Shown here piece by piece: positions 1-45,717 of a stretch of DNA of 64,000 nt. How positions within the stretch are numbered: position 1 is the stretch's first letter; every line of letters starts with the position of its first letter. The notes under the pieces are model-generated. The model saw only the letters and a program-made list of their open reading frames with translations. It was not told where the DNA came from and searched no databases. The translations under genes were made by a program, and so were the position numbers. Origin of the DNA: a virus (lineage: Duplodnaviria; Heunggongvirae; Uroviricota; Caudoviricetes); IMG/VR virus record IMGVR_UViG_3300046453_000093, positions 26,875 through 90,874 of that record; one strand, 5' to 3'.

Positions 1-3
1 GAG

Positions 4-342
4 TTGAGTTTTAGAGATATACAATATTTACATACAACATCAGCTACTTTCACAAGAGGTTATCTATACATTGACAATGACGAAGCAAGGAAGCGTCTTG
101 GCTTAGAGCGTGAAGAGATTAAGGTTAATCAAATTTCAAGAGCAGAGATTGAAAAAGGTCTTAAAGGTGGAATTCCACTATTGAAGAAGATGTTGGAAAC
201 AATCAAAGAATCTGAGAATAGTGCTTTATTGCGAGAAGTCGTTAGTATTGCTAAAGAAATCAAAGTTGACAACACAACAAAATTACAACTGTTAGCAGAA
301 GCTAGTGGCATCCCAATGGAAGTTTTAATTGATATGGAATAA
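4..342 (+). CDS. hypothetical protein, 5'-truncated at window edge; C-terminus looks helix-turn-helix (LLAEASGIPMEVL)
   Basis: ORF runs off the window start. HTH-like C-terminal segment. Followed directly by a strong hairpin terminator. Confidence 0.3.
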   Translation: MSFRDIQYLHTTSATFTRGYLYIDNDEARKRLGLEREEIKVNQISRAEIEKGLKGGIPLLKKMLETIKESENSALLREVVSIAKEIKVDNTTKLQLLAEASGIPMEVLIDME

Positions 343-347
343 TAAAT

Positions 348-373
348 AAGAGGTAGTTCTACCTCTTATTTTC
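348..373 (+). terminator. rho-independent terminator
   Basis: aagaggta-gttc-tacctctt hairpin followed by a T-run. Confidence 0.7.
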
Positions 374-382
374 AATAAAAGG

Positions 383-1351: not shown

Positions 1352-2252
1352 ATGTTACTTTCATTTCGGTGGAGAATTAAGAACAGGTGGTACAAGAATC
1401 CTAAACAACTTAAAAAAATATTCTCCTGAAAATATTACTTTTGTAGATAATCTAAACGATTGTGACTTTGCAATTATTCATTTGCAATATAAACATGATT
1501 TAGATTTTTATTTACACAACTGTAATAAACCAATAATCTTCTTAATTTCAGAACTCCAAAACTCAAAAGAATATTTCAACGAATTCTTCTCCAATCCCCT
1601 TCTAAAAATGACTTACACCTTTCACCCTCTGAGACACTTAGGATACATTGATGAAAACGACAAGAAAAACCATGTGCTTGGTGCTTGGGGTTTTGACGAA
1701 CAATTGTTTGGACAAGACAATCCTTATGAATTAGTTCAATTGGATAGACCTAACACATCAATATGTTTTGGTTTTTATGATTCCGAACGTTACAGCGAAC
1801 AGTATTTGGCAACAAAACAAACAGGTGGAAAATTAATTCATTTAGATATTAAGAAGTGGGATTTTCTAAGACAAGGATTGTTTTTTGATGAAAAACATCA
1901 TTGGTACAAAGAATGGGTTGAGAATGACGAATTAGTTGATTTATATAAATCATGTAAATTTGTTTCAGGCTTACGTTCAGGGGCAGGATTCGAAGTTCCT
2001 GTATTAGAAGGTGCATCATTAGGGCTTACTCCAATATGTTTTGACAATATCTATTACAGACAATGGTTTAATGATTTTGCTGTTTTTATTCCTGAAGAAT
2101 TTGATGTAGACATGGTAAACAATCTAGTTAATATCTATCGGAATTATGATTCATTCAAGTTGAAATTAGACCAAATTAACTATGTTCGTGACAGATTTAA
2201 ATGGGAGACAATTGCAAAAAACTTTTGGAAAGAAGTAAATGCTTCGTTATAG
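1338..2252 (+). CDS. putative divergent GT-B glycosyltransferase (GT4-like C-terminal lobe)
   Basis: C-terminal segment [39 protein letters not shown] resembles the GT4 donor-binding motif (EGFG-PVLEAMA-G-P). Overlaps the upstream gene by 14 nt. Confidence 0.4.
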
Positions 2253-2263
2253 AGGTGATTCAA

Positions 2264-2716
2264 ATGGAGTTACAGACTATTCTTGAAAAGAATGGTGGCA
2301 CTATTAACTTTTATGGTCAATGGCAACATGATGGATTTTATTGGATTGAAGCAGACAAGGGACAAATTCATATAGCAGATGATGTATTTATTGGATGGGG
2401 AACTAGAATAGTTTGCAATGAATACATTTACATAGGAAAATGCACAATCATTGCTGAAAATGTAACGATTCGAGATATGAATCATATGTTTGATGAACCT
2501 GATGAAATAAGATACATGAAACATCAACCATATTCAACAGCACCAACAATTATTGAAGATGGGGTATGGGTTGGTGCAGGGGCTAGAATCTTAAAAGGTG
2601 TTAGGGTTGGTCATGGTGCTATTGTAGGTGCAAATGCTGTCGTTACAAAGGATGTTCCACCAAATGCAATTGTTGGTGGAGTACCTGCAAAAATTATTAA
2701 ATATAGACATGAATAG
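2264..2716 (+). CDS. hexapeptide-repeat (left-handed beta-helix) sugar O-acetyltransferase, MAT/WbbJ-like
   Basis: Tandem hexapeptide repeats [46 protein letters not shown]. Start moved to the ATG at 2264, preceded by RBS agaggtga; the track ORF begins at 2201 inside the upstream gene. Confidence 0.75.
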
Positions 2717-2727
2717 GAGGTGACAGG

Positions 2728-3906
2728 ATGCTAAGAGTTTTATTGGTAACAGATAGCATCACACTCAATACAGGTTATGCTCAAACAGCAAAAATCATTG
2801 TAGATGCTTTATTAGAAGCAAAATGTGATGTGAGACAATTGGCTTGGGGTATAAATGAAGAACCTCAAGACAGCAAGATAAAATTATATCCTACTTCACC
2901 GAATGACTTTTACGGAAAAACATCTTTTCCAAATATAATTGAAGACTTTCTTCCACAAGTTGTTCTAAGTTTTGGGGACTTGTTTAATGTGAGTTGGATT
3001 GCAAATTTCCCAAACCGTTTTTTTAAATGGGTAGCTTATTTTCCGATTGATGCTGAACATATTACTGTAGCGCAAAAACACATGATACTACAAATTGACC
3101 AACCAATTGTCTATTCTAAAACTGCTTTAAATATAGTTCTAAGCGAGACAAAGCGTGAAGACTTAAAAATAATTTATCATGGAATTGATACTGAAAAGTT
3201 TCAGCCATTAAATAAAGATGAATTGAAAAGAAAGTATCGGATGGATGGAAAGTTTATTGTTGGTACTGTTGGCAGAAATAACGCACGTAAAAATTTTCCT
3301 GCTCTTATGGAAGCTTTTGCTGAGTTTTCTAAAGACAAGCCTGACGCAAAACTCTACCTTCACACGAAGCCAGTTGATGTAGGACATAATTTATATGAAT
3401 ACATCAAGAGGTATAAATTGGATAATAAAGTTTATTTTACCCAAGATATGGATGGAGTAATTGGACTTAGTGATGATGAACTAGTTGAATTATACAACTG
3501 TTTTGACATATTTGTTTCGACAACAGCAGGAGAAGGGCTTGGTCTTCCAGTTTTAGAAGCACAGGCATGTAAAGTTCCTGTGCTAGTTACGGATTATTCG
3601 GCATGTAAAGAATTTGTCCCTAAAGATTTCAGGATTAAAGTTAAAGCACATTATTTTGAACCGTTTTGGGATGTTGAACGAGCCATAATCGACCAAGAAG
3701 ATTTGGTTGACAAGTTAAACAAATTATACCACAACAAACAAGTCCTTCCAATCATTGGAGAAAAGTCTAGAAGCTTTGTTGAAGGATATGATTGGAAGTT
3801 CATTAAGCCATTGTGGTCATATTTTATCAAATTATATGCAGAACAACAGTTCGGTATTAAAGAAGAGGATACGAATAGTACTATGTCTAAATTCATTCGT
3901 ATTTAA
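2728..3906 (+). CDS. glycosyltransferase family 4 (GT-B, retaining)
   Basis: EGLGLPVLEAQACKVPVLVTD motif (E-x7-E). ~390 aa. No TM segment. RBS ggaggtga. Confidence 0.8.
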   Translation: MLRVLLVTDSITLNTGYAQTAKIIVDALLEAKCDVRQLAWGINEEPQDSKIKLYPTSPNDFYGKTSFPNIIEDFLPQVVLSFGDLFNVSWIANFPNRFFKWVAYFPIDAEHITVAQKHMILQIDQPIVYSKTALNIVLSETKREDLKIIYHGIDTEKFQPLNKDELKRKYRMDGKFIVGTVGRNNARKNFPALMEAFAEFSKDKPDAKLYLHTKPVDVGHNLYEYIKRYKLDNKVYFTQDMDGVIGLSDDELVELYNCFDIFVSTTAGEGLGLPVLEAQACKVPVLVTDYSACKEFVPKDFRIKVKAHYFEPFWDVERAIIDQEDLVDKLNKLYHNKQVLPIIGEKSRSFVEGYDWKFIKPLWSYFIKLYAEQQFGIKEEDTNSTMSKFIRI

Positions 3907-3923
3907 GGATTGAAGGTGAAAAG

Positions 3924-5021
3924 GTGACAAGTGTATTGTTTCGAGGGTCATGCTTGGGTTTCTCAGGATATGACAACACAAATTTACTGTATGTAATTGG
4001 TATGATTCAGAATGATGTAAATGTCAAGTTGATTGAACAATTGGATAACAGAGATTTCTATTTTCAATTCATTAGAAAAGATTGGGTTGAATTGTTAAAA
4101 GATGCAATGGATAAACCAATGCCTGACGAATACATATATTTTAATAGAACAACGTTAGACTGTTTTAAACAATATCCAAATGCACTAAAGACATATGTTT
4201 CAACAGTGTGGGAAACTGACCCTGCACCTGATTATTTTATTGATGCATTTAATAATATAGAAGCAAATGGAATTATTGTTCCAAGTAATTTTAATAAAAG
4301 AATGATAGATGGGAAAATAAATAAGCCTGTCCACACATTAAGAGAAGGTTTGGACTTATCACTCTATGAAAATATGAGTGAAAATAAACCTCAAGGGACT
4401 TTTAAATTTCTCAGTTTATTCCAATGGCTACCAAGAAAAGGTTATGATGTATTGCTAGAAGCATATTTTAAAGAGTTTCAAAATCATGAAGATGTTGCAC
4501 TAGTGATTAAAACATCCTCTTTAAATTATGGGGTAATTCCATCAAGTCAGATTTTGGGGAATATCGCCAATGTAAAAAGAAGGTTTGGTAAAAGTCTACC
4601 TGTATATGTACTTCCTACACACATTTCATATGACGAAATTCTTAATTTGTATAATGACTGCCATAGTTATATCTGTGCATCTAGAACAGAGGGGTATTGC
4701 AGACCATTACTAGAAGCAATGGCGAGTAACTTACCTGTAATAACTACCAATTGGGGTGGACAAACGGACTTTGTAAACAATGAGAATGGATACTTACTAG
4801 ATTACAGACTTGCAAATATTCCACAACAATGGTATTCAGGAGATTTTCAGCCACATCAAGTATGGGCTGACCCAAGTGTGGAACATCTACAACACTTAAT
4901 GAGAAGCGTATATGAAAATCGTTCTGAAGCACAAGAGAAGGCTAAAAGGGCAAAGCAGATGACTCAAGAATATGATTATAGATTGATTGCAAAAGATTTA
5001 GAACAAATCTTATTCAGTTAA
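3924..5021 (+). CDS. glycosyltransferase family 4 (GT-B)
   Basis: TEGYCRPLLEAMASNLPVITTNWGGQTDF motif. GTG start with RBS gaaggtgaaaagg. No TM segment. Confidence 0.75.
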   Translation: MTSVLFRGSCLGFSGYDNTNLLYVIGMIQNDVNVKLIEQLDNRDFYFQFIRKDWVELLKDAMDKPMPDEYIYFNRTTLDCFKQYPNALKTYVSTVWETDPAPDYFIDAFNNIEANGIIVPSNFNKRMIDGKINKPVHTLREGLDLSLYENMSENKPQGTFKFLSLFQWLPRKGYDVLLEAYFKEFQNHEDVALVIKTSSLNYGVIPSSQILGNIANVKRRFGKSLPVYVLPTHISYDEILNLYNDCHSYICASRTEGYCRPLLEAMASNLPVITTNWGGQTDFVNNENGYLLDYRLANIPQQWYSGDFQPHQVWADPSVEHLQHLMRSVYENRSEAQEKAKRAKQMTQEYDYRLIAKDLEQILFS

Positions 5022-5023
5022 TT

Positions 5024-6031
5024 TTGAAGGGTGGAGGGGAAATGGAAATATACAGAGCGAAATCACCTCTAAGGGTTTCTTTTTCAGGTGGTGGGACAGA
5101 TATAGAGCCATATTTAATAGATTATGGCGGTTGCGTTTTAAGTACCACAATTAATAAGTATTGCTATGCTACTCTTATTCCAAGAGATGATAATCAAGTG
5201 ATTATTCATTCTCATGATTTCAATCTGACAGTGAAGTATCAGCTTGACGAAAAAGACTCACTAGAAGACGACCTGAAGCTTGTAAGAGCAGTTATAAGGA
5301 GACTTGATGTAAGACAAGGGTTCGAAATTAAGATTCACAGTGACGCTCCTGTGGGTTCAGGATTAGGGTCTTCGTCCAGTTTGGTAGTTTGTCTAATTGG
5401 AGTTTTGTCAAAATGGATGAATCTATCTTTGTCGCTATATGATATTTCAAGAATGGCTTATGAGATTGAAAGAGTAGATATGAATATAAGTGGAGGTCAT
5501 CAAGACCAGTACGCAAGTGCATTTGGCGGGTTTAATTTTATAGAGTTCTTTGACAATAAAACCATTGTTAATCCATTAAGAATTAAAGAAAGCTATCTAA
5601 ATGAATTGGAATATAACCTGCTTCTATGTTTTACAGGTAAGACTAGAATGGGAGAAAGCATTATCAAAAAACAGGTTAGTAGTTATAAAGATAATGTGCA
5701 GTATCTTCATGAGTTAAAAAGTCTTACTTTAGATATGAAGAATTCCCTATTGACAGGAAATGTTCATGAATTTGGTTCGCTTTTTCACGATGCTTGGGAG
5801 AATAAAAGGAAGCTTACCAGTGGTATTTCAAATCCACATATTGATGAATTATATGAGATTGGCAGAAATGCGGGTGCTTTAGGTGGAAAGCTTTTAGGTG
5901 CAGGTGGCGGTGGCTACTTGCTTTTTTATTGTACTGACAAGCAAAAAGTTGGGAAAGCATTGCAAGATGCAGGTGGACAATTAGTAGATTTTAACTTTGA
6001 TTATAAGGGGTTAACGACATGGAAAATATAA
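5024..6031 (+). CDS. hddA: GHMP-family sugar kinase, D-glycero-D-manno-heptose 7-phosphate kinase (HddA-like)
   Basis: GHMP motif PVGSGLGSSSSLVVCLIG. N-terminal PLRVSFSGGGTD. Context between gmhA, gmhB and hddC. Alternative start at 5042 (MEIYRAK). Confidence 0.7.
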   Translation: MKGGGEMEIYRAKSPLRVSFSGGGTDIEPYLIDYGGCVLSTTINKYCYATLIPRDDNQVIIHSHDFNLTVKYQLDEKDSLEDDLKLVRAVIRRLDVRQGFEIKIHSDAPVGSGLGSSSSLVVCLIGVLSKWMNLSLSLYDISRMAYEIERVDMNISGGHQDQYASAFGGFNFIEFFDNKTIVNPLRIKESYLNELEYNLLLCFTGKTRMGESIIKKQVSSYKDNVQYLHELKSLTLDMKNSLLTGNVHEFGSLFHDAWENKRKLTSGISNPHIDELYEIGRNAGALGGKLLGAGGGGYLLFYCTDKQKVGKALQDAGGQLVDFNFDYKGLTTWKI

Positions 6032-6570
6032 TTAATGAACACTTAGAAGTTGTAGAATCAATGAAAAGTCTTGTTTCAAAGATTGACTTAATTGCTGATG
6101 TAATTATTCAAGCTTATGAAGATGGAAATAAAGTTTTGATTTTTGGTAATGGTGGAAGTGCAGTAGATTCTGAACACTTCACCACAGAATTGGTTAGTCG
6201 TTTTAAGTTTGACAGAGAAGGATTAAATGCAATCAGTCTGTCAAGTAATGTTGCTACTCTAACTGCCATTGGGAATGATTATGATTTTGATTCAGTGTAT
6301 TCTAGACAGGTAAAGGCATATGCAAATCAGGGCGATATTGTAATTGGTATTACTACAAACGGATTTTCACCAAATGTAATTAAGGGTTTAGAAAAGGCGA
6401 TTGAATTAAAATGTATTCCAGTTCTAATCACAGGAAACAAGAATATTGACAATGAGTATATTACACTAAATATTAATTCCAATAATACAGCACGTATTCA
6501 AGAAGCTTACCTACTAGCTATTCATATGATATGCGAAAAGGTAGAAAGAGTATTGTTCGGTGAGAAATAA
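6019..6570 (+). CDS. gmhA: sedoheptulose-7-phosphate isomerase (SIS domain), GmhA
   Basis: IFGNGGSAVDSEHFTTELVSRF matches the GmhA signature GNGGSA-DAQHF--EL. 183 aa. Confidence 0.85.
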   Translation: MENIINEHLEVVESMKSLVSKIDLIADVIIQAYEDGNKVLIFGNGGSAVDSEHFTTELVSRFKFDREGLNAISLSSNVATLTAIGNDYDFDSVYSRQVKAYANQGDIVIGITTNGFSPNVIKGLEKAIELKCIPVLITGNKNIDNEYITLNINSNNTARIQEAYLLAIHMICEKVERVLFGEK

Positions 6571-7072
6571 AACTGTTTTTCTAGATAGAGATGGAGTTAT
6601 TTGTGAAGATATTCACCATCTACATAAGGTAGAACAACTGGAATTGATAAATGGTACAAAAGAAGCAATTCGAGCATTGAAAGATAATGGATATCTAGTC
6701 ATTGTCATAACGAATCAGTCAGTAGTCGCAAGAGGACTTGTAGACGTATTTGGAGTCATTACAATTAATAATCACTTAAATAACATGGTTGACAACCTGA
6801 TTGACGACTTTTTGTTCTGTCCTCACTTGCCTACAGATGATTGTTTATGCAGAAAGCCGAATATTCAGCTTATCAAAAATGCAAGTCTTTATTATGATGT
6901 AGATATTTTCGAATCATATATAGTTGGTGATAAGTCAACCGATATTCAAGCAGGGTATAATGCGGGGCTAAAAACAATCGCTGTGAGAACAGGGTATGGA
7001 GAAATGCCTGAATATGCTGACTACAAAGCTGACAATCTTTTAGACGCTGTGAGGAAAATAATATGCAAATAG
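6560..7072 (+). CDS. gmhB: D-glycero-D-manno-heptose 1,7-bisphosphate phosphatase (HAD family), GmhB
   Basis: VFLDRDGVI HAD motif I. CPHLPTDDCLCRKP matches the GmhB zinc-binding CPH...C-CRKP. 170 aa. Confidence 0.85.
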   Translation: MRNKTVFLDRDGVICEDIHHLHKVEQLELINGTKEAIRALKDNGYLVIVITNQSVVARGLVDVFGVITINNHLNNMVDNLIDDFLFCPHLPTDDCLCRKPNIQLIKNASLYYDVDIFESYIVGDKSTDIQAGYNAGLKTIAVRTGYGEMPEYADYKADNLLDAVRKIICK

Positions 7073-7701
7073 CAGTAATTCTATGTGGTGGAAAAGGAAC
7101 AAGATTATTTCCTTTAACAAGGGAAATTCCTAAACCAATGTTACCAATTAAAGGCAAGTCTGTATTAGAATATCAAATTGAATTTCTTAGAAAAAATAAT
7201 GTAAAAACTATCTATCTAGCTGTTGGATATTTGAAAGAGCAGATTATTGATTATTTTAAAGATGGTTCTAATTTTGGTGTTGAAATCAAATATCTTTATG
7301 ATAATTGTGAGGGAACAGGCGGTGCGTTAAGAGGATTAAAAACGCTACTTGGTCTTAATACTCCTATTCTAGTAATGAATGGGGACACATTGTTTGATGT
7401 TGACATTCAGGATATGGTAAATCATCATAGTGAATCAATCACTATAGCAGTTGCCAATGTAGAAAACCCTGATAGATACGGTGTAGTTCAAGATGGAAAG
7501 ATTCAAGAAAAAATTAAGGTTGATAGAGGTTTGGTTTCAATAGGTTTATATATTATTGAACCTGATGTTTTCAGTCTGATTTTTGATGGATACTGCTCAT
7601 TAGAGAAAGATATTTTTCCATTGTTAAAACAAGGATTTTATCAATATGAAGGCGATTGGTATGACATGGGTACGATGGAAGTTTATGAAGAAGTGAGGTG
7701 A
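7063..7701 (+). CDS. hddC: D-glycero-D-manno-heptose 1-phosphate guanylyltransferase-like nucleotidyltransferase (HddC-like)
   Basis: N-terminal ILCGGKGTRLFPLT sugar-nucleotidyltransferase motif. ~210 aa. Context. Nucleotide specificity (GDP vs other) cannot be read from sequence. Confidence 0.7.
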   Translation: MQIAVILCGGKGTRLFPLTREIPKPMLPIKGKSVLEYQIEFLRKNNVKTIYLAVGYLKEQIIDYFKDGSNFGVEIKYLYDNCEGTGGALRGLKTLLGLNTPILVMNGDTLFDVDIQDMVNHHSESITIAVANVENPDRYGVVQDGKIQEKIKVDRGLVSIGLYIIEPDVFSLIFDGYCSLEKDIFPLLKQGFYQYEGDWYDMGTMEVYEEVR

Positions 7702-8363
7702 AATATATGGCACTAAGAGCATCTTTGAATTCAAATGTAAATGATAGAAGTAAGTGGATTGGTTCTGTTGATGGTCAAAATATTCCAATTGTCACAAGGC
7801 ACTCTGCTTCAGGTACATCTGAGACAGTTCTTATTTACATCTTTAATGATGGAAATCGTGACAGCGATTCAGAGCCAATGAATTTAGAGTATAGAAATGT
7901 CACTATTAAACCAAGAGGTAAGAGAACAAGGATTCTTACAAGCCTTGGAGAAGACATAGCACCATATGTAAATACAATTCCTATTGAAGACCCAAAATGG
8001 TATGGAAGTGGCACTAAAATATTAACAGACCCTATAGTTTTGGGTGGAACTCAAATTCGAGAAGAATTTTGGGTTAAAAGCATACAAGGAAATAACTTAA
8101 TAGTTGATAGGGGTCAAAACAATTCTACAGCTTTAACTTTACCCAATAGAATGTGGATTGAAGCTTACCCTGACCATTTATATCTTAGTTTGACAGGTAA
8201 AGATGGTACTTGGGTACAAGGTAGTCAATTACTATTGCCTGATATTTTGGAAGGTTGGACACCAATCAAGGTATATGTGAGAGTTTCGACAGGCGCATTA
8301 AAAACTCAAATGAAAATAGATTCATTTTTATCTATTAATGGTGATGAATATCCTAAGTTTTAA
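7698..8363 (+). CDS. hypothetical beta-rich protein, paralog of 8388-9152; translationally coupled to hddC (likely true start ATG at 7707, MALRAS...)
   Basis: Shares motifs with the next ORF (MAL N-terminus, YIFNDG / YVYNDG, NLEYR / NLRYE, IKPRGK / LKPKSF). Overlaps hddC stop. RBS gaggtg. Confidence 0.5.
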   Translation: MKYMALRASLNSNVNDRSKWIGSVDGQNIPIVTRHSASGTSETVLIYIFNDGNRDSDSEPMNLEYRNVTIKPRGKRTRILTSLGEDIAPYVNTIPIEDPKWYGSGTKILTDPIVLGGTQIREEFWVKSIQGNNLIVDRGQNNSTALTLPNRMWIEAYPDHLYLSLTGKDGTWVQGSQLLLPDILEGWTPIKVYVRVSTGALKTQMKIDSFLSINGDEYPKF

Positions 8364-8387
8364 AAATAATAAAGGGGGAATTACCCA

Positions 8388-9152
8388 ATGGCTTTACAAT
8401 TATTAAAAGATTTCACTGTAACAGGTGGGAGATATGTAAATTTAATCACAATGGACACACCATTGACAATTACACAAGATGGTGGGATTGACGATATTAA
8501 TACAATAGTACCAACTTATTTTTATGTGTACAACGATGGAAAAAGGCGTGACCCAATGTTTGACCCTGTAGATGGTACAGATATGAATTTAAGATACGAA
8601 CAAATTATTTTAAAACCAAAATCTTTCCAAACAGTTATTATTTCAGCAGGAGGTGGAAGTAATGGTACTTCAACTAGATTATATCTTGGTGCAGTTTCAG
8701 TTACAACTCCCGCAGTTATGAGGATAGAAATTGGTTCAGTATTAGCTTTAACTCAAGGTGTAAACACAGAAGATGTTTTAGTTATGAAAATTGGTGGAGA
8801 TGCTTACGGTTCTTATGTTGATGTAATTAGAAACTATCGAAATTCATCTACAACTCTATCAGCCTTGAATATTGTTCCAGGAAATACTGTTGATGTAAGC
8901 ACAAAACACATTTTTCTTTCAAAAACAACTGATTTTTCAGGCTCGGTTGGAGGGTCACAGTTGACTCTTAGTAATGTAACTAGTTCGATTACAGTTCCTT
9001 CAGCAAACCCTGATGTAACTCAATATCAAACTATTTATATTAAAGCTGTTCCTCAACTGCAAAAATCAGGTTCAACTCAGATTACTCGTATTCCAACCCA
9101 ACATAAAACTGATGTATATTTTGAAATCTCATATAGAGAGTTACCGAACTAA
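8388..9152 (+). CDS. hypothetical protein, paralog of 7698-8363
   Basis: Paralogy as above. RBS aaaggggg. Confidence 0.5.
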   Translation: MALQLLKDFTVTGGRYVNLITMDTPLTITQDGGIDDINTIVPTYFYVYNDGKRRDPMFDPVDGTDMNLRYEQIILKPKSFQTVIISAGGGSNGTSTRLYLGAVSVTTPAVMRIEIGSVLALTQGVNTEDVLVMKIGGDAYGSYVDVIRNYRNSSTTLSALNIVPGNTVDVSTKHIFLSKTTDFSGSVGGSQLTLSNVTSSITVPSANPDVTQYQTIYIKAVPQLQKSGSTQITRIPTQHKTDVYFEISYRELPN

Positions 9153-9165
9153 GAGGGTAGTGATT

Positions 9166-9393
9166 ATGAATATGGTAAAAAGATATATTTGGAATATATT
9201 AATCTCTATTGACCAATTGCTCAATACATTGCTCTTTGGTTCTCCTGATGAAACAATGTCCTCTCGAATGGGAAAGCATGTTGCCAAGAAAGATTGCCTA
9301 TTCTGTAACCTTGTATGCAAGTTTCTTAATCTCTTTGAAAAAGACCATTGTAAAAAGTCTATTGAAGAAGACGAAGGAGAGCCAATGAAATAA
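9166..9393 (+). CDS. small Cys/His-containing hypothetical protein (possible zinc-binding)
   Basis: Start adjusted to MNMVKRY after RBS agagggtag. Contains C-x2-C-x3-C and H-C cluster (KKDCLFCNLVCKF...DHCKK). Confidence 0.35.
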   Translation: MNMVKRYIWNILISIDQLLNTLLFGSPDETMSSRMGKHVAKKDCLFCNLVCKFLNLFEKDHCKKSIEEDEGEPMK

Positions 9394-9436
9394 ATGTTTT
9401 TAAAGAGATTAAGTATTATTTAAAGGGGGCATATAA

Positions 9437-10270
9437 ATGTCATTACAATTTATTTCTGTAAATACACCTTCCAATATCATTGCGTATATTGGAAGTGGAA
9501 TTCCAGTAATTACAAGCCATAATGTATTCACTACAATAGTAGATGATTCAGATTTTGGCATAAAAGATTTACTTATTGATAAGTCATCTCATAAATTCGA
9601 TGAAATCATGGCAGGAAAACCATATATTGATGTTTACTATGATGGTGCTAATATTCAAGGAACTCTAATGAATGTAGATTTCAATTTCCCATCAATTGCA
9701 AAAGTATCATTGTTTGGAGGAAGTTATGATTGTGAGGTAAATGGAGATTATAAGTTTGTCTTCCCTGTTTCTATTCACCCTGCTATTTCAGAAAAACGTG
9801 TGAATGTAACAATTAAAGCTGAAGGATTTCCACCTACATCTATTGAAATTGGTGGAAGTAATGAAAACGCAAATGCTATAACTTTTCTTGACGAGAATGG
9901 AGTGTACAACGTTACACCTTCAAGCACTGAAGAATTAGCTTTTTATTGGCAAAACAAACTGGTAGATTTACAATGGAGTGCTGTAGACCTCGCAACAATT
10001 ACAGGATTATTGGCTCACACTATGTTTACTCATGTCTTGCCTAATATTGAACAATTAAATTTAACTGTAGAAGAACAAAATGGCTTACAAGAACTTCAAA
10101 CAAATCTTTTACCTTTGATTTCTACCAGTCTTTCAACTATTAAGCCTGACGAAAATTCAATGGATATTCATTATGCTTCCTATCGTTACCATTTATATCA
10201 AGCAAATGAAGCTATACAAAAATACATAGAAGATAAAACTAATATTTCGAAATATTCTCCATTTGAATAA
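9437..10270 (+). CDS. hypothetical protein
   Basis: RBS aaaggggg. 277 aa. No recognisable motifs. Confidence 0.45.
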   Translation: MSLQFISVNTPSNIIAYIGSGIPVITSHNVFTTIVDDSDFGIKDLLIDKSSHKFDEIMAGKPYIDVYYDGANIQGTLMNVDFNFPSIAKVSLFGGSYDCEVNGDYKFVFPVSIHPAISEKRVNVTIKAEGFPPTSIEIGGSNENANAITFLDENGVYNVTPSSTEELAFYWQNKLVDLQWSAVDLATITGLLAHTMFTHVLPNIEQLNLTVEEQNGLQELQTNLLPLISTSLSTIKPDENSMDIHYASYRYHLYQANEAIQKYIEDKTNISKYSPFE

Positions 10271-10295
10271 TAAATAAATTATGAGGTGAATAAGG

Positions 10296-10493
10296 ATGGA
10301 AGGTTGTTTGGTACTGTGTGAACATTGCCCAATTGAGAAAACCCCAAATGGTTCTTGTTATGACATGAATGGTGTTTGGACACTAATTCAGGAAGAATGG
10401 GTTTATCAAGGGACATGGAAATGTAATCTATACAATAAAGAAATGGACATATGTGATTGTCCAATGGAAATGAATACCGAAATGGGAGACTAG
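10296..10493 (+). CDS. small Cys-rich hypothetical protein (7 Cys in 65 aa)
   Basis: Good RBS atgaggtga. Followed by hairpin aatgggaga-ctagt-tctcccatt. Confidence 0.4.
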   Translation: MEGCLVLCEHCPIEKTPNGSCYDMNGVWTLIQEEWVYQGTWKCNLYNKEMDICDCPMEMNTEMGD

Positions 10494-10544
10494 TTTCTCC
10501 CATTTCATTGACTACGAAAATAAGGGAAAGGTGGTGGATTGTGA

Positions 10545-13500
10545 TTGGAAGAATTATTACTCGAAAGACAGTTGAATAGCAAAACTTATCTAAATGAAGA
10601 TGGTACTCGTACCATGAAATATTTTGGTAGACCTATTCACTTTGATAAGAATGGCAAACTCGAAGAAATTGATGTAAATTTTCATCTAAATACCACATCC
10701 AACCCTGCATATTATTTATTTAATACAGTTAATAATAGTTTCAGAATAGGATTATCGAAAAATTTATCTATTGATAAATCTATTAAATTTTCTTTTAGAT
10801 ACGATGGTGTTGGTGACATATTCACAACCATTAAGGGTTTAGCCTTATACGATTCTGAAAAAGACGAATATACAATTTTTGAAAAACCTCAAGCGAATAC
10901 AGGTTCTATTGAAAACAATATCGCCAAATATCCAAATGTATTCAATGGAATGGATTTTGAATTTCATTCCTTAGATGACAAGTTGAAAGAATATATTTAT
11001 CTAAATGACAAGGGCAATATTCCAAATCCTACGGATTATGGATATAATCCTGAAACTACATATTTAATTGTGCTTAATGAACTAAGCACAAACTTGTTAG
11101 AACTTCAATACAATGAAGAACAGCTAGAAGTTTACAATGAAGGAATCCAAAAATTAATCTCCCCAAAAGAATGGGCAAAGGATAATGACCAAAAGGATTT
11201 AACCATTCTCAACAACTATAATGCTGACACTGGCGAATATTATTTCGGTGTTCCTTATTCAGAGATTCAGAACGCCAATTTACCTATAACAATTGACCCT
11301 ACGTGGCAGACTTCGGGAGTTCCAACAGTTCAAAACTTTGATTGTACTTATGAATTTGACTCTTTTGAAGGCGGCTATTATACCTATCCTAACCTAACCA
11401 CTTTAGGTATGTTTCCTGAGAATGGAGGTTATATCTCTCAACGGAGTATGATTAAATTTGATTTATCAGGACTTCTGGCTTCATTTAATAATGTTGTAAA
11501 AGCGTATTTTAATTTTACGTTTCAGTCAACCAATGCTTTCTATTTGTCTATATTGACTAGTTATTCTCCAAATTCTCAAAACATGTTTGAGAATATTATC
11601 CCTAATTCGACTGGATTTTTAGTAGCTAGTTCACCTGTAGATGTTACAGCAGTAGTAAAAAATTGGCTTTCTAACCCTAGTTCAAACTATGGTTTTGGTC
11701 TTGATTATTTCGGTGGCAATACCTCAAGAATTTATGGTTTAGGTAGTGGTGTCAGCACCCAACCTTATCTTAGCATTGATTACGTTTCTAGTGTTTTAGG
11801 TTTTACTGGTTTGCCAACTTCTAACTCTATCAAGTGGACATGGAATGCGTTAGCAGAAGCAGAAAAATACGTTATCTATGATAATAATAATGTCAAACTT
11901 GCTGAAATACCAAGTGGAACATTGACATGGACTGAGACAGGCTTATCGCCAAACACCTCGTATACTCGTAAAATTCGATATGTAACAGGCGGAGTCGAAC
12001 AAACTCCTGAAACAGTGGCGAGTGCTACAACTTATACGGTTTTACAGCCTGTTAGCAATTTAGTTGCTACTAATGTGACGAGCAATAGTGCGACTTGGCA
12101 ATGGGGCGACATAGTTTTTGGAAATGAACTCGCCCCTCTGTTTGACAGTGGGAGATGGTCTACTAGTTCCACTGTAACATTTAATAGCCCAACGAAGTTA
12201 ACCATTGATAATACAAGCGGGTCTTATTTTGGGTCATATGTAGAAATAACAGTAAAGTCGAACACTAACTATCTGTTAAATTTATTAAAAGGTGGCACTG
12301 GTGCAAGCACTAACGGATATGTCAGAATTACAGGTGTTGTTAATGGTGTTGTAGAAGCCACAAATATAGCTAACAATAACACTGGTGTTGCAATTCCTTT
12401 TAATAGTGGAACTTACTCTTCTTTGAGAATTTTCTTTTATGCAAATTACACTAGTGGAGGAATTTCTTTTGAGAATGTTTCTATCAAAGAAACAAACTCA
12501 GGAATCATTTCTTACGAAATACTAGATAAAAATGGTGTTTTATTGTATACGACTCCTGATGGAAACACAAAGACATGGACTGAAAACAATTTACGATATA
12601 GCTCTAATTATATCAGACAAGTTCGTGTGGCTAGAAATGGTGAGAGAAGTAGCAATGTTCAGGTGAGTGTGACTACGAGTGCTAGACCTATAAATATGTC
12701 AGCGCAAACTATTACGGTTAATCCTAGTGCGGATACCTATAATAATGGCTTTAATCCTACCATAAATTATGGAACAGCTACACAGTTTTCTGTAGGTAGA
12801 GGTGCTTCAGTATCTTATCTATATAAGGGATTTTTAAAATTCCCTATCCCGCTTTCTACTGACATTACACTAAATACCGCTACTCTAAAATTGTACAGTA
12901 CCACAGCAATTAGTACAAGTTATAATTGGTTTATAGAAAATGTGAATAGTCAATGGGACGAAACAACGTTAAACTACAATAATATGCCAGTTAGCAATAC
13001 AACAACACCGTTGTATAATGTAAGTAGGGCAATTTCCGCTAACATAGATAGTGACTTTGTTCTTGATGCCACACTGGTTAAAAATTGGATAAATAATCCT
13101 TCTTCAAATTATGGGGTATCAATAAGGCATAATGGAACTACTAATGGTAATTTTGCCCAATTTAATTCAAAAGAATCAGCTGATGCTACAAAGATACCAA
13201 GGCTTGTAATAAATTATACACCTTCTATTCCACCACTCAAGCCAACAGTCCTATCAGGGGCAGTTTTATCGTCTTCCTCCATTCGTTGGTCTTGGAGTGC
13301 AGGAGATGGCACAGCAACCGAATATCGCATTTACAATGCTGATACAGACCAATTGATTGGAACTTCTTCGACTAGTAGCTTTGATGAAAGTGGAGTTACA
13401 TTAGGCAACACATACAATCGCTATGTGGTTGCATACAACTCAGGTGGAGAGTCGCCTGTAACAAGTACAACATTGCATACTTCGCCTTTGGCTAATTTTA

Positions 13501-15188
13501 GAGGTATTCCACAAACTGCTACTTCTATTAAATGGGCTTTCGACCTGTTTACCACTGTTGACAAAGTTATTATTTATGACAATAACAATGTGAAGCTGAC
13601 TGAAGTCTTAAGTGGTACGACTGAGTGGGTTGAAACAGGGCTACTACCAAATAGTACTTACACTAGAAAAGCAAGATATGTAAAAAATGGTGTAGAAGAC
13701 AGTGTATATGTTGTTGTCTCTAATAATACCTATGCCACTTTAGTTGTCCCTCAAAGTGCAAGTGGAGTCGCTGTGAATACTAATACCATTACTTGGTCTT
13801 GGGATGATACGGTAAACCAAGGTATCACTGGATTTGAAGTACTAGATAAATTCAACAATGTAAAATACAGTGGTAGCAATACGGTTAAGTCTTGGACTTC
13901 CAAACAATTAAGATACGGAACAGATTATGAGCGATATGTGAGAAGTGTTCGTAATGGTGAAAAAAGTGGATTAGTTAAGATAACTGCTAGGACACAGGAC
14001 AGACCTGCAAATATAGATGAGATGACGACATATGAAACTTTGAATGTTAGTCAGGATGTTTATATCAATTCAAGCACTCCGACTTCATCATCATCAACAG
14101 GTGCTATAAGCTACATTGGAAAATCAGGAACTACTTTATATAGGTATTTAATTAAATTTAATACTTCAACCATTCCAATTGGACGTGAATTAAAAACCGC
14201 AAAAATTAGGATTTATGAAACCTCCTATTCAGGTACTCCATCACAAATGGGACTTTATAAAATTACACAAAGTTGGTTAGATACTGCAAATTGGAATACT
14301 CAACCATCTTGTGAAAGTATTTCGATTGCTCAAATACCATTTTCTTCGACAACTGGAAAATATTATGAAGCCAATTTACCTATCGCAAATATCCAAGATT
14401 GGGCAAATAATAATAATGGGTTATTAATCAAGTCAGACGAAGTATCGTCAGGGTATGTACAAGTAAATACTTATGAGGGATTATTCCAACCATTTTTGGA
14501 CATATCGCATGAGTCGCCAATTGCCCCATTATCACCTAGCAATTTACAAGGCTCAATCAAAACAGGCTCAAGTATTTTATGGCAGTGGAATGAAACAACT
14601 TCTATTAACGCTCAAGGCTATCGTATTTACAATGCTGACAATGACCAATTGATTGTTGAATTACCTGTCGGAATTACAAGTTATGAAGAAACTGGCAGAG
14701 TTATGGGAATAACATATAATCGCTATGTGGTTGCATATAATTCCTATGGTGAGTCTCAAGTTGTTTTGACCTCTTATTTGTTCGACCAATCACCTCCAAC
14801 TAATATTGTTGGCACACCACAATCTTCAAGTCGCATAATTTGGACATTCGAGCCTGTGAGTGGATTTACAGAATATCGTATTTATTACTTTAATTCAACG
14901 AACAATACAAATACTCTTTTCGCTAGGGTAAAATATGAAAATGGGCAATATAACACGTATTTAGAAAGTAACTTAACGACTCCAATAGGTGGTTTCGGAA
15001 ATCCTCAGTTACCACGTAACGGATTGAACCCAAATACGACAGAGACAATAAAGGTAACGACAGTTGGAGAAACATATGAAAGCAGATATTCTAACTCAGT
15101 TAGTGCAACAACTTACACGCTACCACCAATGAGAACAATCAGTGGTCAAAAACTAGGTTTGAATAATTTAAAATGGACAATTATATAG
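10545..15188 (+). CDS. giant (1547 aa) virion-associated adhesin-like protein: repeated fibronectin type III domains plus three CBM-like (DNRLRE-type) beta-sandwich modules
   Basis: Repeated FN3 pairs (EYRIYNADTDQLIG...YNRYVVAYNSGGES twice; IKWTWNALAEAEKYVIYDNNNVKL...TSYTRKIRYV twice). Three modules sharing LVKNWLSNPSSNYGFGL / LVKNWINNPSSNYGVSIRHNG / IQDWANNNNGLLIKSDE. Very S/T/N-rich. Confidence 0.6.
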   Translation: MEELLLERQLNSKTYLNEDGTRTMKYFGRPIHFDKNGKLEEIDVNFHLNTTSNPAYYLFNTVNNSFRIGLSKNLSIDKSIKFSFRYDGVGDIFTTIKGLALYDSEKDEYTIFEKPQANTGSIENNIAKYPNVFNGMDFEFHSLDDKLKEYIYLNDKGNIPNPTDYGYNPETTYLIVLNELSTNLLELQYNEEQLEVYNEGIQKLISPKEWAKDNDQKDLTILNNYNADTGEYYFGVPYSEIQNANLPITIDPTWQTSGVPTVQNFDCTYEFDSFEGGYYTYPNLTTLGMFPENGGYISQRSMIKFDLSGLLASFNNVVKAYFNFTFQSTNAFYLSILTSYSPNSQNMFENIIPNSTGFLVASSPVDVTAVVKNWLSNPSSNYGFGLDYFGGNTSRIYGLGSGVSTQPYLSIDYVSSVLGFTGLPTSNSIKWTWNALAEAEKYVIYDNNNVKLAEIPSGTLTWTETGLSPNTSYTRKIRYVTGGVEQTPETVASATTYTVLQPVSNLVATNVTSNSATWQWGDIVFGNELAPLFDSGRWSTSSTVTFNSPTKLTIDNTSGSYFGSYVEITVKSNTNYLLNLLKGGTGASTNGYVRITGVVNGVVEATNIANNNTGVAIPFNSGTYSSLRIFFYANYTSGGISFENVSIKETNSGIISYEILDKNGVLLYTTPDGNTKTWTENNLRYSSNYIRQVRVARNGERSSNVQVSVTTSARPINMSAQTITVNPSADTYNNGFNPTINYGTATQFSVGRGASVSYLYKGFLKFPIPLSTDITLNTATLKLYSTTAISTSYNWFIENVNSQWDETTLNYNNMPVSNTTTPLYNVSRAISANIDSDFVLDATLVKNWINNPSSNYGVSIRHNGTTNGNFAQFNSKESADATKIPRLVINYTPSIPPLKPTVLSGAVLSSSSIRWSWSAGDGTATEYRIYNADTDQLIGTSSTSSFDESGVTLGNTYNRYVVAYNSGGESPVTSTTLHTSPLANFRGIPQTATSIKWAFDLFTTVDKVIIYDNNNVKLTEVLSGTTEWVETGLLPNSTYTRKARYVKNGVEDSVYVVVSNNTYATLVVPQSASGVAVNTNTITWSWDDTVNQGITGFEVLDKFNNVKYSGSNTVKSWTSKQLRYGTDYERYVRSVRNGEKSGLVKITARTQDRPANIDEMTTYETLNVSQDVYINSSTPTSSSSTGAISYIGKSGTTLYRYLIKFNTSTIPIGRELKTAKIRIYETSYSGTPSQMGLYKITQSWLDTANWNTQPSCESISIAQIPFSSTTGKYYEANLPIANIQDWANNNNGLLIKSDEVSSGYVQVNTYEGLFQPFLDISHESPIAPLSPSNLQGSIKTGSSILWQWNETTSINAQGYRIYNADNDQLIVELPVGITSYEETGRVMGITYNRYVVAYNSYGESQVVLTSYLFDQSPPTNIVGTPQSSSRIIWTFEPVSGFTEYRIYYFNSTNNTNTLFARVKYENGQYNTYLESNLTTPIGGFGNPQLPRNGLNPNTTETIKVTTVGETYESRYSNSVSATTYTLPPMRTISGQKLGLNNLKWTII

Positions 15189-15207
15189 AAAGGGGGTTGA
15201 ATAGTTA

Positions 15208-17691
15208 ATGACGTATCTTAGAGGATATAAGCTTTATGAACCTCTTGACATTTTGAACCCCAATCCATCAAGTGATAGATTGATAGTTACTTTTATTGAA
15301 GGAAGTGACTATCAATCAACTGATGGTAGTATTATTTTTACAGAAACAACTGTCAATTCAACATATCTAAACGGTGGGGAAACAGAATATCGCTACTTTG
15401 TAGCTTTTGATGATGAAAATATAGGATTGCCTTCAAATATTTTTTCTATTTTAAATCTAATGCCACCTACAAATGTTACAGCATATGCAACAGAGTATGA
15501 TGAAGTACAAACAGAGTTTACAATTGCTGAATTTGCAAGTGGATACAAATACTCATTAAAAGATTTATCTACAGGAGAAATAGTCGTAAGTGATTTGTCT
15601 AGTGATGGCTCTATATTTGGATTAAAAGCTAATTCAACATATGAAATAAAATTAGCTTCAATAAATGACGATGATGAAGTTACTGAATGGAGTAATTCTA
15701 TTCAAGTGGCTACTTTAAAACTTTTTCTTTTAAGTTCAACACCATCGGACAAATACATCTCATGGCAATGGGAACACGAAAATATTGGTCTAAATGTAGT
15801 TAAATTCGAACTAATTAATAAGGATGACAATGTTGTTCTTTATTCAGGTTTAAATACAACTTATGGTCAAATTAGTCCAACAAAAATTCACAACAATGCT
15901 GTAAAAGTAACTTATGACAATGCAGTCACAAGGGAAACAAGACTAATAACATCAGCAGTTTACAACAATAATACAGATAAATTTAGTTTTGGTCAGCTAA
16001 CAACTAAAGATGATAAAAAATCTATTGCTTCTATGAAAATTGAAATTTATCGTGATTTGCTATTGAGTGCAATGTATAAAAATACATATTTTGCAGATAA
16101 TCTAAAAACATTTAGTAATAGCAATATACTTTATTCTGATTTAAAAGCATTTGGTTCATATAGATTATCGTTAATCAACTATAGACATGATGACTATAGT
16201 TTTTACCAAGATAGTATTTCGAATGGTTCATTCAAGACTTATGTGGAAATAAAAACGCATCAAACATATTCAAGAAATGTTGGATTAAAACTCTCATTAA
16301 ATAATAATATTACAGACAAATATAAAATTAACTATGATTATTTTGCAAACAATAAGTCTATACTATCAATAAAACCACTTGTGTTTAACTCGCAATCTAG
16401 AGTAATACAATCAAAATCAGTGACATATCAAGATGGGAAAATTTTAAATCAACCTAAATACAATATCTATAATAATCGCACGTCACCATTTGGGCTTAAA
16501 TTGGATTATTTCAACTTTATGCAGACACTTGTAACAAGGCAGAGACAGACAGTATTCAACCCTGCAACATCGTATGATGTTAACCATGTTGACGTTGTTT
16601 TTAACACAACGATAACCAATGTTGATTTACAAAGTCAGGTTAACAAAGTGAGAATACTATGTATTGGTGATAGTATCACAGCGGGAGCGCCAAGTTATGA
16701 CCCACAATATGGCGGGACTGTATGGATTGCTGACTTAATTACTGGAAAAACAAAGACTCGTAACGTAATAGAATCACAATACCCATATTGGCTACAAAAA
16801 AGATTAGGTATTGATGACTTTGAAATTATCAACGAAGGGTCAGGACGTAGAACCTCAACTGAAGTTGAATACCATGTAAGAAGTCAAATGGAAGCATACA
16901 AACCTGAATATGTAATTATTATGATTGGTACAAACGATATTTTTCAATCTCAAGATAGTGGAATAACAAATCTTCAGAACGTGGTAAACACAACGTTAAA
17001 TAATATCCGCAAAACAGTTGATAAAGTTAGAGAGTTTAATGGTGTTCCAATTCTAGGGACACAGTTGCCACGTAACTCAATTGTTCCCATTGAAGCTAAA
17101 AATGCTCTGAGAAATCTGAATGCGGGGATAAAAAATCTCGGTATCGAATACGGTATTGACATTATTGATTGGTACGATGAATTTGTACAAAAAGACAATA
17201 CTGGTAAAGAAAATGGAGTTTTACGCTATGATTTAACCGTAGATGATACTCACCCATCGGTTGCAGGATACAAGAAAATGGCATACACTATCAACTTAGG
17301 TATCTTCAATTCGTTTAGAGCAAGTCTAAGACTATTTGGTTCAATGTTAGGAAATGATGTTGATTATTCGACAGAAGAGTCGAAGGTTCAACCTGACCCA
17401 TATACTTTTAACTACTCTATCGTACTCCCTGAACTGAGAAGACTACAAAGATATGTGTTCTCTAAGTATATTAAAAACACAGGAAATTCATGGGGGCTAT
17501 TTGTAATACAGTTAAATGACCCTGACAATATTTGTGAAATATGGGATGCAAAAAATAAAGTATGGACAAATACTTTGATAGGACAATTAGCACCTAATCA
17601 AGTAATGGAATTCAGAATGAGATATATAATGCCATCAACAGGCACTAAAAAACAAGTGGATTTCAACATAGATTACATTGTTAAGAGATAG
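15208..17691 (+). CDS. 827-aa FN3-repeat protein with C-proximal SGNH/GDSL hydrolase (esterase/deacetylase) domain
   Basis: ILCIGDSITAG (GDS block I). IIMIGTNDI (block III). DDTHPS (catalytic D-x-x-H). N-terminal FN3-like repeats. RBS aaaggggg. Confidence 0.65.
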   Translation: MTYLRGYKLYEPLDILNPNPSSDRLIVTFIEGSDYQSTDGSIIFTETTVNSTYLNGGETEYRYFVAFDDENIGLPSNIFSILNLMPPTNVTAYATEYDEVQTEFTIAEFASGYKYSLKDLSTGEIVVSDLSSDGSIFGLKANSTYEIKLASINDDDEVTEWSNSIQVATLKLFLLSSTPSDKYISWQWEHENIGLNVVKFELINKDDNVVLYSGLNTTYGQISPTKIHNNAVKVTYDNAVTRETRLITSAVYNNNTDKFSFGQLTTKDDKKSIASMKIEIYRDLLLSAMYKNTYFADNLKTFSNSNILYSDLKAFGSYRLSLINYRHDDYSFYQDSISNGSFKTYVEIKTHQTYSRNVGLKLSLNNNITDKYKINYDYFANNKSILSIKPLVFNSQSRVIQSKSVTYQDGKILNQPKYNIYNNRTSPFGLKLDYFNFMQTLVTRQRQTVFNPATSYDVNHVDVVFNTTITNVDLQSQVNKVRILCIGDSITAGAPSYDPQYGGTVWIADLITGKTKTRNVIESQYPYWLQKRLGIDDFEIINEGSGRRTSTEVEYHVRSQMEAYKPEYVIIMIGTNDIFQSQDSGITNLQNVVNTTLNNIRKTVDKVREFNGVPILGTQLPRNSIVPIEAKNALRNLNAGIKNLGIEYGIDIIDWYDEFVQKDNTGKENGVLRYDLTVDDTHPSVAGYKKMAYTINLGIFNSFRASLRLFGSMLGNDVDYSTEESKVQPDPYTFNYSIVLPELRRLQRYVFSKYIKNTGNSWGLFVIQLNDPDNICEIWDAKNKVWTNTLIGQLAPNQVMEFRMRYIMPSTGTKKQVDFNIDYIVKR

Positions 17692-17720
17692 GGAGATTTT
17701 CTCTATCTCTATTTTTATTG
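17685..17720 (+). terminator. putative rho-independent terminator
   Basis: gagatag-ggagattttct-ctatctc hairpin followed by tatttttatt. Confidence 0.45.
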
Positions 17721-17733
17721 AGAGAAGGGGTGT

Positions 17734-18831: not shown

Positions 18832-18842
18832 GGGTGTGAAAT

Positions 18843-45709: not shown

Positions 45710-45717
45710 AGGATAAA

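Follow-up and report, generated by a model that had tools for sequence, protein, structure and literature searches.

What is encoded by the genes that directly follow a nucleotide-sugar cluster in a tailed phage, and do they belong to the glycan, to the virion, or to neither? This question is raised by a stretch of 64,000 nucleotides (nt) from a member of the Caudoviricetes (IMG/VR virus record IMGVR_UViG_3300046453_000093, positions 26,875 to 90,874), referred to here as the window, in which a nine-gene sugar block (383..7701, + strand) ending with the nucleotidyltransferase gene hddC is followed by five small genes and then by the gene of a giant protein. The five genes, all on the + strand, were termed A (7707-8363), B (8388-9152), C (9166-9393), D (9437-10270), and E (10296-10493), with products of 218, 254, 75, 277, and 65 amino acids (aa), respectively. 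An earlier note based on the nucleotide sequence, termed here the original prediction, had proposed that they form one group of glycan acceptors, scaffolds for glycosylation, or sugar-modifying enzymes. We find that A and B are a paralogous pair that, judged from their sequences, represents a very rare new protein family, which we file among phage virion accessory proteins. The role that we tentatively favor is that of nonenzymatic, all-beta platform or adaptor subunits of the virion surface that dock the giant fiber and are possibly glycosylated.

Paralogy, rarity, and fold of A and B

The paralogy of A and B had originally been read from three common sequence blocks, and both the relationship and the blocks proved to be real. 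The two proteins aligned in BLASTP with an expect value (E) of 9e-8 and 26% identity over 167 aa. An alignment of 24 A and B sequences had 14 invariant columns; N47, D48, G49, and R51 in the block YIFNDG/YVYNDG, Y62 in NLEYR/NLRYE, and P69 in IKPRGK/LKPKSF are invariant, and A and B also have a common C-terminal motif, TQxKxD...E.P. Cross matches between A and B were seen again in other lineages. Orthologues from three divergent lineages are 44-48% identical for A and 29-50% identical for B, compared with 23-29% between A and B, and the two sets group separately. The presence of separate orthologue groups across three lineages indicates that the duplication is old and that both copies were retained. 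Orthologues of B follow A in the related contigs that we labeled L001, L006, L008, L009, L016, and L019.

In a collection of 5.8 billion sequences, relatives at 58-100% identity amounted to 13 for A and 11 for B, all of them metagenomic. A profile search of 1.84 billion cluster representatives gave 22 matches, approximately nine of which are full-length family members; those that are not full length share the hairpin motif "E..V..I.GN.L.V.RG..GT" alone, which forms tandem repeats in unrelated giant proteins. Longer single-copy relatives of 275-317 aa (P0032, P0033, P0039, P0047, and P0049) have the same N and C termini, and the barrel motif, present once in A and once in B, occurs twice in P0032, P0033, and P0039. 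Neither A nor B had a match in Pfam, PHROG, or NCBIfam. No hits were obtained by blastn of positions 7000-11000 against a phage collection, by tblastn of B and of a 365-aa protein encoded further downstream against phage genomes, by IMG/VR scans with P0032, P0029, D, and a joint A/B alignment, by scans of a genome collection and of metagenomes with this alignment and with A, or by PDB sequence searches with the joint A/B profile, D, the YonB-like protein encoded upstream of the window, and a YonB alignment. A relationship of A and B to the 365-aa protein, a 299-aa protein, or D was rejected, as hhalign probabilities were below 2%. As a separate observation, a hairpin of ~40 residues, "E.MLVT.(I/V)SGNTLTV.RGY.GT.A..H," which corresponds to no family in the Pfam copy searched, forms long tandem arrays in the giant proteins P0030, P0031, P0040, and P0041, one of which also contains RTX repeats.

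The beta-rich character ascribed to A was confirmed by an AlphaFold2 model (predicted local distance difference test [pLDDT], 83.2; predicted template modeling score [pTM], 0.77) with 16 strands and no helix. The all-beta model has two domains, a sandwich built from the N- and C-terminal strands and, inserted in it, a beta-barrel at residues ~85-155; there is no GT-A, GT-B, SDR, or similar fold. The barrel part (~90 residues) is the sole region that matches known structures. Its six strands can be superposed on the N-terminal domain of solved tailspikes and fibers, and at a root mean square deviation of ~3 Å it resembles the N-terminal anchor domains of the tail fiber of Ralstonia phage GP4 (8jov chain 1), depolymerase S2-4 of Klebsiella phage K64-1 (9k4a), and tailspike gp54 of Acinetobacter phage AP22 (4y9v). 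In those proteins, the barrel forms the N terminus of a long trimeric spike, the body of which is enzymatic or binds receptors. A and B, by contrast, stand alone, with the barrel set into a separate beta-sandwich; neither a fiber shaft nor such a body follows the barrel in A or B, and the chains end in the C-terminal strands of the sandwich. The barrel of A also resembles the insertion domain of P22-type coat proteins (P22, 5uu5/2m5s; Vibrio phage VP1, 9in6; CUS-3, 8skg). This likeness is confined to the barrel, since that insertion domain is part of an HK97-fold coat chain, whereas A and B contain no HK97-fold elements and have genes of their own, at a distance of 7-8 kb from that of the probable capsid protein. 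One weak Foldseek match of A was to an endosialidase beta-barrel, which we take to be a sialic-acid-binding domain. No sequence or fold relationship of A or B to characterized decoration proteins (lambda gpD, T4 Hoc/Soc, phage L Dec, T5 pb10, and similar proteins) was found. Serine plus threonine (S+T) accounts for 16% of A and 21% of B, which has S/T-rich loop insertions, compared with 6-13% in the sugar enzymes. Both proteins are free of cysteine, and their composition resembles that of the tail tube and fiber proteins of this phage, unlike that of its enzymes.

Neighborhoods in eight lineages and the proposed role of the pair

Genes of the A/B type were found in eight lineages, three with the pair and five with a single longer form. 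(i) In the clade of the window (window/L004, L001, L006, L008, and L009), the order is HddC, A, B, variable genes, the giant fn3/CBM96 protein, and a GDSL protein. (ii) In L018/L019 (contigs of 137-179 kb), YonB, a small gene, a GDSL gene, and the same sugar cluster precede A (44% identity) and B (50%), which are followed by a 349-aa protein and then by giant SPRY/fn3/discoidin proteins. (iii) L016/L017 start with a major head protein (phrog_2522, 4e-71) and two small genes, followed by an orthologous set of glycosyltransferase (GT) cluster genes (304-like, 7e-33; acyltransferase, 6e-21; GT4a, 1e-69; GT4b, 6e-54), a 170-aa gene, A (46%), B (31%), two small genes, and an endolysin gene; in L016, a fusion of a nucleoside triphosphate (NTP) transferase and a phosphomannomutase replaces the four heptose genes, corresponding to a different nucleotide-sugar pathway. 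Among the contigs with the single form, the relative in L010 is followed by a 1983-aa protein, and the cassette lies after a gene for a ClpP-like protease and two small open reading frames (ORFs), with a YonJ-like gene in the same stretch and none for head, tail, or lysis proteins visible there. In L012-14 and L020, the relative follows the lysis genes and precedes a protein of the same giant family (E 4e-31), and in L011, it is flanked on both sides by fn3 proteins that match the giant protein of the window at E 1e-22. In L015, the tail tube gene is followed by the relative, an E-like gene (2.5e-13), Vut_1, QueC, a giant-like gene (1e-93), a GDSL gene, and a gene for a 365-like protein (2.6e-19).

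The paired form was thus found only with a GT cluster and directly behind the orthologous cluster (three of three lineages), and the single longer form only without sugar genes in the DNA examined (five of five: L010, L011, L012-14, L015, and L020). A giant or fn3 protein is adjacent in seven of the eight lineages, including the five without sugar genes, and outside L011, A/B-like genes always precede the giant gene. As the eight lineages are not independent samples, this tally is suggestive rather than statistical. The pair starts ~5-23 nt past the stop codon of the last sugar gene, or, in L016, after the one additional 170-aa gene, and 7-9 kb of sugar genes separate the block from the capsid gene or probable capsid gene that precedes it in L016, L019, and the window clade. 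From these gene orders, the appendage cassette with A/B-type genes appears to be mobile among SPbeta-like siphoviruses. A side observation in L020 is a reverse transcriptase gene (RVT_1, L020:17453-18505) after a 1782-aa giant protein that adjoins the A/B-like gene; it may be part of a diversity-generating retroelement aimed at the fiber.

According to the reading that we tentatively favor, A and B would be an ancient duplicated pair of small proteins, whose conserved N- and C-terminal beta-sandwich bears an inserted barrel of the tailspike/fiber-anchor type. They would assemble on the virion surface, probably as a hetero-oligomer, into a platform that docks the giant fiber, and in lineages with a nucleotide-sugar/GT4 cluster, they may also present a phage-made glycan. 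The corresponding appendage cassette of SPbeta-like siphoviruses would comprise A, B, the Cys protein E, the giant fn3/CBM96 glycan-binding protein, the GDSL esterase, and the 365-aa protein, and C and D would be variable cargo in the same slot, outside the function of A and B. The ATG start codons and strong ribosome-binding sites of A to E and the TTG start codon of the giant gene fit many-copy base subunits and a low-copy fiber, respectively. The virion location, the interaction of A with B, the docking of the giant protein, and the glycosylation of A and B are what we infer here. Of the candidate roles in the original prediction, the structural ones (decoration, appendage, or acceptor) fit best with an all-beta protein, a virion-type barrel, and a pair behind a GT cluster, whereas the enzyme and scaffold roles were not supported, since five lineages have relatives without sugar genes in the DNA examined and no enzyme fold or family was detected.

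A number of observations weigh against this reading. There is no full-length analogue of A in PDB or BFVD (best TMq, 0.31), and the barrel, a generic fold of six strands, is matched by the N-terminal barrels of F1-ATPase and FliI as well. In L016/L017, A and B occur without a giant gene in the ~9.5 kb downstream. The capsid protein of L016 (phrog_2522), considered as a possible YonB relative, turned out to be unrelated in sequence to the YonB family, so that a capsid-specific binder must tolerate different capsids. The adjacency of B and the giant gene is loose, because C and D in the window, or Mom, Vut_1, and QueC in L001, lie between them.

Several of these neighborhoods would also be expected if A and B were dedicated glycan acceptors, namely, capsid decoration proteins that carry a heptose glycan made in the cytoplasm, with the giant fibers as an independent neighbor. 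The pair abuts the last sugar gene in all three GT-bearing lineages, including L016, which has neither the heptose genes nor a giant gene downstream; the block is located just downstream of the (probable) major capsid gene in all three; and the paired form accompanies GT clusters only, the single form their absence only. The S+T content of B is in line with this role, and the sugar cluster contains no flippase or polymerase according to Pfam, which fits a cytoplasmic target of the glycan. A precedent is provided by mycobacteriophages, the virions of which are reported to be glycosylated by phage-encoded GTs (Freeman et al. 2023, pmid 37329881, as cited in PMC12582341 and PMC10955285). The likeness consists in phage-encoded GTs that are expressed with structural genes (in the window, two GT4 genes and the gene of a GT-like 304-aa protein share an uninterrupted + strand block with the structural genes), and it makes glycan modification of virion proteins in the cytoplasm the natural reading of the cluster. 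In the mycobacteriophage system, the acceptors are reportedly the capsid and tail-tube subunits themselves, and we know of no nucleotide-sugar pathway or dedicated small partner proteins described for it, whereas the GTs of the window come with a full GDP-heptose pathway and with the conserved pair of A and B, in a phage of a low-GC Gram-positive host. The acceptor role is possible but, on balance, unlikely: five lineages keep relatives without a GT in the DNA examined, the distribution of paired and single forms could reflect a single ancestral linkage event and not repeated selection, and neither A nor B has an S/T-rich low-complexity tail, whereas the giant protein, with 22% S/T and locally up to 11 in 20 residues, is at least an equal candidate acceptor. 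We consider it rather unlikely that the entire block is a self-contained, transferable capsid-glycosylation kit, in which two or three GT4-type transferases would attach the phage's own GDP-heptose derivative in the cytoplasm to a heteromeric A/B carrier that would coat the virion and serve as a socket for giant lectin-like fibers.

Small genes beside giant fiber genes often encode assembly factors, such as the chaperones of phage tail fibers. A and B could then be nonvirion chaperones or targeting subunits that keep the giant fiber or another substrate ready for folding, oligomerization, or presentation to the GTs and are subsequently discarded. The link of the family to giant proteins and GT clusters alike speaks for this role, and the conserved terminal sandwich, which bears a single barrel in A and B but two in P0032 and P0033, could be a module for substrate binding. 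We regard this as improbable, given that A/B-like genes lie upstream of the fiber gene, unlike Tfa-like chaperones, the small genes of which are typically found directly downstream, that no match to a chaperone family was found in PHROG or Pfam, that the fold matches virion-resident domains, and that L016 has no adjacent fiber gene. Even less can be said for A, B, and possibly D as sugar-modifying enzymes or lectin-like subunits of a novel fold that complete the glycan pathway. Such a function is compatible with where these genes lie, at the 3' end of the sugar operon, with a small number of polar residues that are invariant (D48, R51, E119, R135, and H157), and with the endosialidase match, but neither an enzyme family nor an enzyme fold was detected, relatives persist in five lineages without any sugar genes, and E119...R135 form part of the "E..V..I.GN.L.V.RG" hairpin, the recurrence of which as a tandem structural repeat in the unrelated giant proteins P0030, P0031, and P0040 marks it as structural rather than catalytic; we consider an enzymatic or lectin-like function highly improbable. 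The five genes could also be unrelated accessory "moron" genes, for example, for host takeover or antidefense, in a permissive slot of the late operon. That slot indeed holds C, D (in two of five close lineages), Mom/Vut_1/QueC (L001), or Vut_1/QueC (L015), and an HNH gene has entered the GT cluster of L006. This explanation fits C and D but not A, B, and E, whose neighborhoods persist at identities as low as 23-31% (A and B) or recur from lineage to lineage (E), and for the group as a whole we judge it distinctly improbable.

Gene calls, transcription, and cargo behind hddC

Genes A to E each have an ATG start codon with a strong Gram-positive ribosome-binding site, and each has orthologues or a family match, which confirms all five as real genes. 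The original prediction had allowed for four to six proteins; the number is five, since 9112-9393 (a longer alternative start of C), 9209-9388, and 10279-10503 (- strand) are not separate genes. An overlap of the first gene with the stop codon of hddC had been proposed on the basis of a GTG codon at 7698. This is a mechanical ORF boundary and was rejected as the true start of A, because orthologues and the public gene call begin at the ATG at 7707 (MAL...), which is 5 nt past the TGA of hddC. The spacers, previously given as 20-45 nt, measure 5, 24, 13, 43, and 25 nt along hddC-A-B-C-D-E, with 51 nt from E to the giant gene.

Of the proposed translational coupling on a transcript shared with the sugar genes, the shared transcript is supported by an uninterrupted, tight, same-strand block, whereas the coupling is not, because each gene has its own strong Shine-Dalgarno sequence, which leaves co-transcription alone supported. 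On the + strand of positions 1-19000, the sole intergenic terminator-like hairpin with a T-run is located at 17684-17710, after the GDSL gene, where it probably marks the end or an attenuation point of the accessory-block transcript; no such intergenic site was found on this strand within 383-17684. Matches to a sigma-70 promoter numbered 82, compared with 93 expected from shuffled sequence, and a promoter that separates A to E from the sugar cluster was rejected on these grounds. In SPbeta, the phage polymerase YonO transcribes the late structural cluster into a single polycistronic mRNA (PMC8270828). The promoter count below the shuffled expectation and the single YonO mRNA of SPbeta make the co-transcription of A to E with the sugar genes well supported. 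A tblastn search for a YonO-like RNA polymerase gave no match in the window. A perfect hairpin with a stem of 11-12 bp (10478..10507) spans the stop codon of E, ~40 nt before the ribosome-binding site of the giant gene, and the segment 10465-10545 folds with -23.4 kcal/mol in RNAfold. It was rejected as an intrinsic terminator of the + strand, as no T-run follows it and conservation is lacking: L006 has no hairpin at the position of the E stop codon, and the one in L009 differs and looks more like a terminator. It may be an attenuator or an mRNA-stability element.

The treatment of the five genes as one functional set was not supported, since C is promiscuous, D is present in two of five close lineages, and E tracks the giant gene and not the sugar genes. 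Protein C, with 4 Cys, matches phrog_3342 over nearly its full length (E 1.6e-21; residues 1-70 of 75 against profile positions 4-75 of 90). Matches by tblastn were found in 28 phage records of unrelated hosts at 34-57% identity, with 54-57% in Xanthomonas and Caulobacter phages (55.7% to Xanthomonas phage BUDD) and weaker matches (34-46%) in Pasteurellaceae phages and one cyanophage. The former values represent an unusually high cross-phylum conservation for 75 aa in a phage of low-GC Gram-positive type. Among the relatives examined, C occurs in the window lineage only, and an orthologue is absent from the related contigs L001, L006, L008, and L009. NCBIfam gave no match to C. By its sequence matches, C appears to be a promiscuous small phage gene that is carried as variable cargo.

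The lineage-specific D has an orthologue with 72% identity in L006 only (L006:11466-12299). It had no match in Pfam, PHROG, NCBIfam, or PDB, and its single-sequence AlphaFold2 model (pLDDT 35) is unusable; a beta-rich N-terminal part and a helical part at ~164-268 are predicted with low confidence. The small Cys-rich protein E, with 7 Cys, is 48-58% identical to small ORFs in L001, L006, and L009, in addition to the orthologue in L015, and five Cys (C8, C11, C21, C43, and C53), which include a CxxC motif, are conserved in four clear orthologues; it had no match in Pfam, NCBIfam, or PHROG. In four lineages, E is located upstream of the giant gene, with Mom/Vut_1/QueC genes intervening in L001 and L015, and this gene order suggests that E belongs with the giant gene and not with the sugar genes. 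The slot of C and D is permissive, as seen in L001, where it holds Mom, Vut_1, and QueC genes. Vut_1, of the queuosine-precursor transporter family, and QueC lie between the E-like and the giant gene in L001:11689-13499 and L015:11513-12794, with a Mom-family gene in addition in L001; these genes look like 7-deazaguanine/DNA-modification cargo in a slot of virion genes. Since only A, B, and E are part of the conserved unit, the five ORFs should not be treated as one system in experiments.

The accessory insertion of an SPbeta-like phage

The window has a low GC content (~33%) and is coded entirely on the + strand up to ~45.5 kb. The coding strand and the GC/AT skew flip together at ~46 kb (~45500-46300), past the lysis genes; this marks where the late operon gives way to a block of divergent orientation. 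Downstream, PHROG matches account for a full set of siphovirus tail and lysis genes (a 2670-aa tape measure protein, Dit, Tal, endolysin, and a holin-like protein). Proteins of the YonD_N and YonB families are encoded directly upstream of the window (precomputed Pfam matches in the public copy of the contig), and a 242-aa protein of the window is 50% identical to proteins of Bacillus SPbeta-group phages. By these matches, we classify the phage as an SPbeta-like siphovirus. The YonB-like protein matches phrog_12438, annotated as "virion structural protein, head and packaging," and its gene is the probable capsid gene. In L015, the gene at the left edge (L015:1-886), two genes upstream of a YonD-like gene (terminase by position), contains an intein with a LAGLIDADG endonuclease domain.

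In a comparison with Bacillus phage BUCT082, the YonB-like, 126-aa, 208-aa, 165-aa, 240-aa, and 242-aa proteins are collinear, and there is no BUCT082 counterpart for 383-~20138, which comprises the sugar genes, A to E, and the genes of the 1547-aa, 827-aa, 365-aa, 299-aa, and first 126-aa proteins. A to E are thus inside an accessory insertion of ~19.7 kb that separates the probable capsid gene from the connector genes; it falls between the YonA-like gene, which is next after the YonB-like gene, and the YomZ-like gene.

The sugar block at the start of the insertion has orthologous blocks in L001, L006, L008, and L019 and, in part, in L016. By Pfam, it encodes a GDP-mannose-dehydratase-like SDR (383-1351, + strand), the 304-aa GT-like protein with weak GT4 similarity (1338-2252, + strand), a hexapeptide acyltransferase, two GT4 glycosyltransferases, and the four GDP-D-glycero-D-manno-heptose enzymes, namely, the GHMP kinase HddA, the SIS isomerase GmhA, the HAD phosphatase GmhB, and HddC (ending at 7701). 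A complete GDP-glycero-manno-heptose pathway is hence present within the late structural operon of an SPbeta-like phage, and our literature search on phage-encoded hddC/gmhA heptose pathways found no relevant paper describing such a phage cluster. The otherwise collinear cluster of L006 contains an HNH endonuclease gene between the two GT4 genes (L006:5082-6197), and L001 and L006 have an additional methyltransferase gene and an additional gene of ~311 aa; based on these differences, the glycan probably varies among relatives.

At the other end of A to E, the giant 1547-aa protein (10545..15188, + strand) contains three DNRLRE/CBM96 stretches and fn3 repeats (Pfam CBM96, 3.5e-30; fn3, 1.2e-14; NCBIfam DNRLRE, 2e-41), has orthologues in L001, L006, L009, and L015, and is likely the fiber or adhesin partner of the cassette. 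Its TTG start codon, behind a strong GGTGGTG ribosome-binding site, is kept in four lineages (in addition to the window, L001:13531, L006:12531, and L009:3178), which suggests a deliberately low translation of the giant protein compared with the ATG-started genes A to E. The next gene (15208..17691, + strand) encodes an 827-aa protein with a C-terminal GDSL/SGNH esterase domain (Pfam Lipase_GDSL_2, 8.6e-21); orthologues in L001, L006, L008, and L015 make it a conserved member of the cassette after the giant gene. It is followed by the gene of the 365-aa protein (17734..18831, + strand). The L015 orthologue likewise follows the GDSL gene, and a 362-aa gene is found at the same place in L006; the protein is absent from BUCT082 and is probably part of the same cassette.

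If A and B link a phage-made glycan with giant fibers, the cassette would provide temperate SPbeta-like phages with a compact, mobile means of remodeling the virion surface, with consequences for adhesion, host range, and immune evasion, and the pair would be a defined small system for virion glycosylation outside the actinobacteriophages. Were the block a complete glycosylation kit, it would be the first in a phage to combine a nucleotide-sugar supply of its own with a purpose-built glycan-carrier protein, as opposed to modified capsid or tail-tube subunits. If A and B are adaptors only, they would still constitute a new and very rare family that marks giant-fiber cassettes and would explain the ~19.7-kb insertion in the block of head and connector genes.

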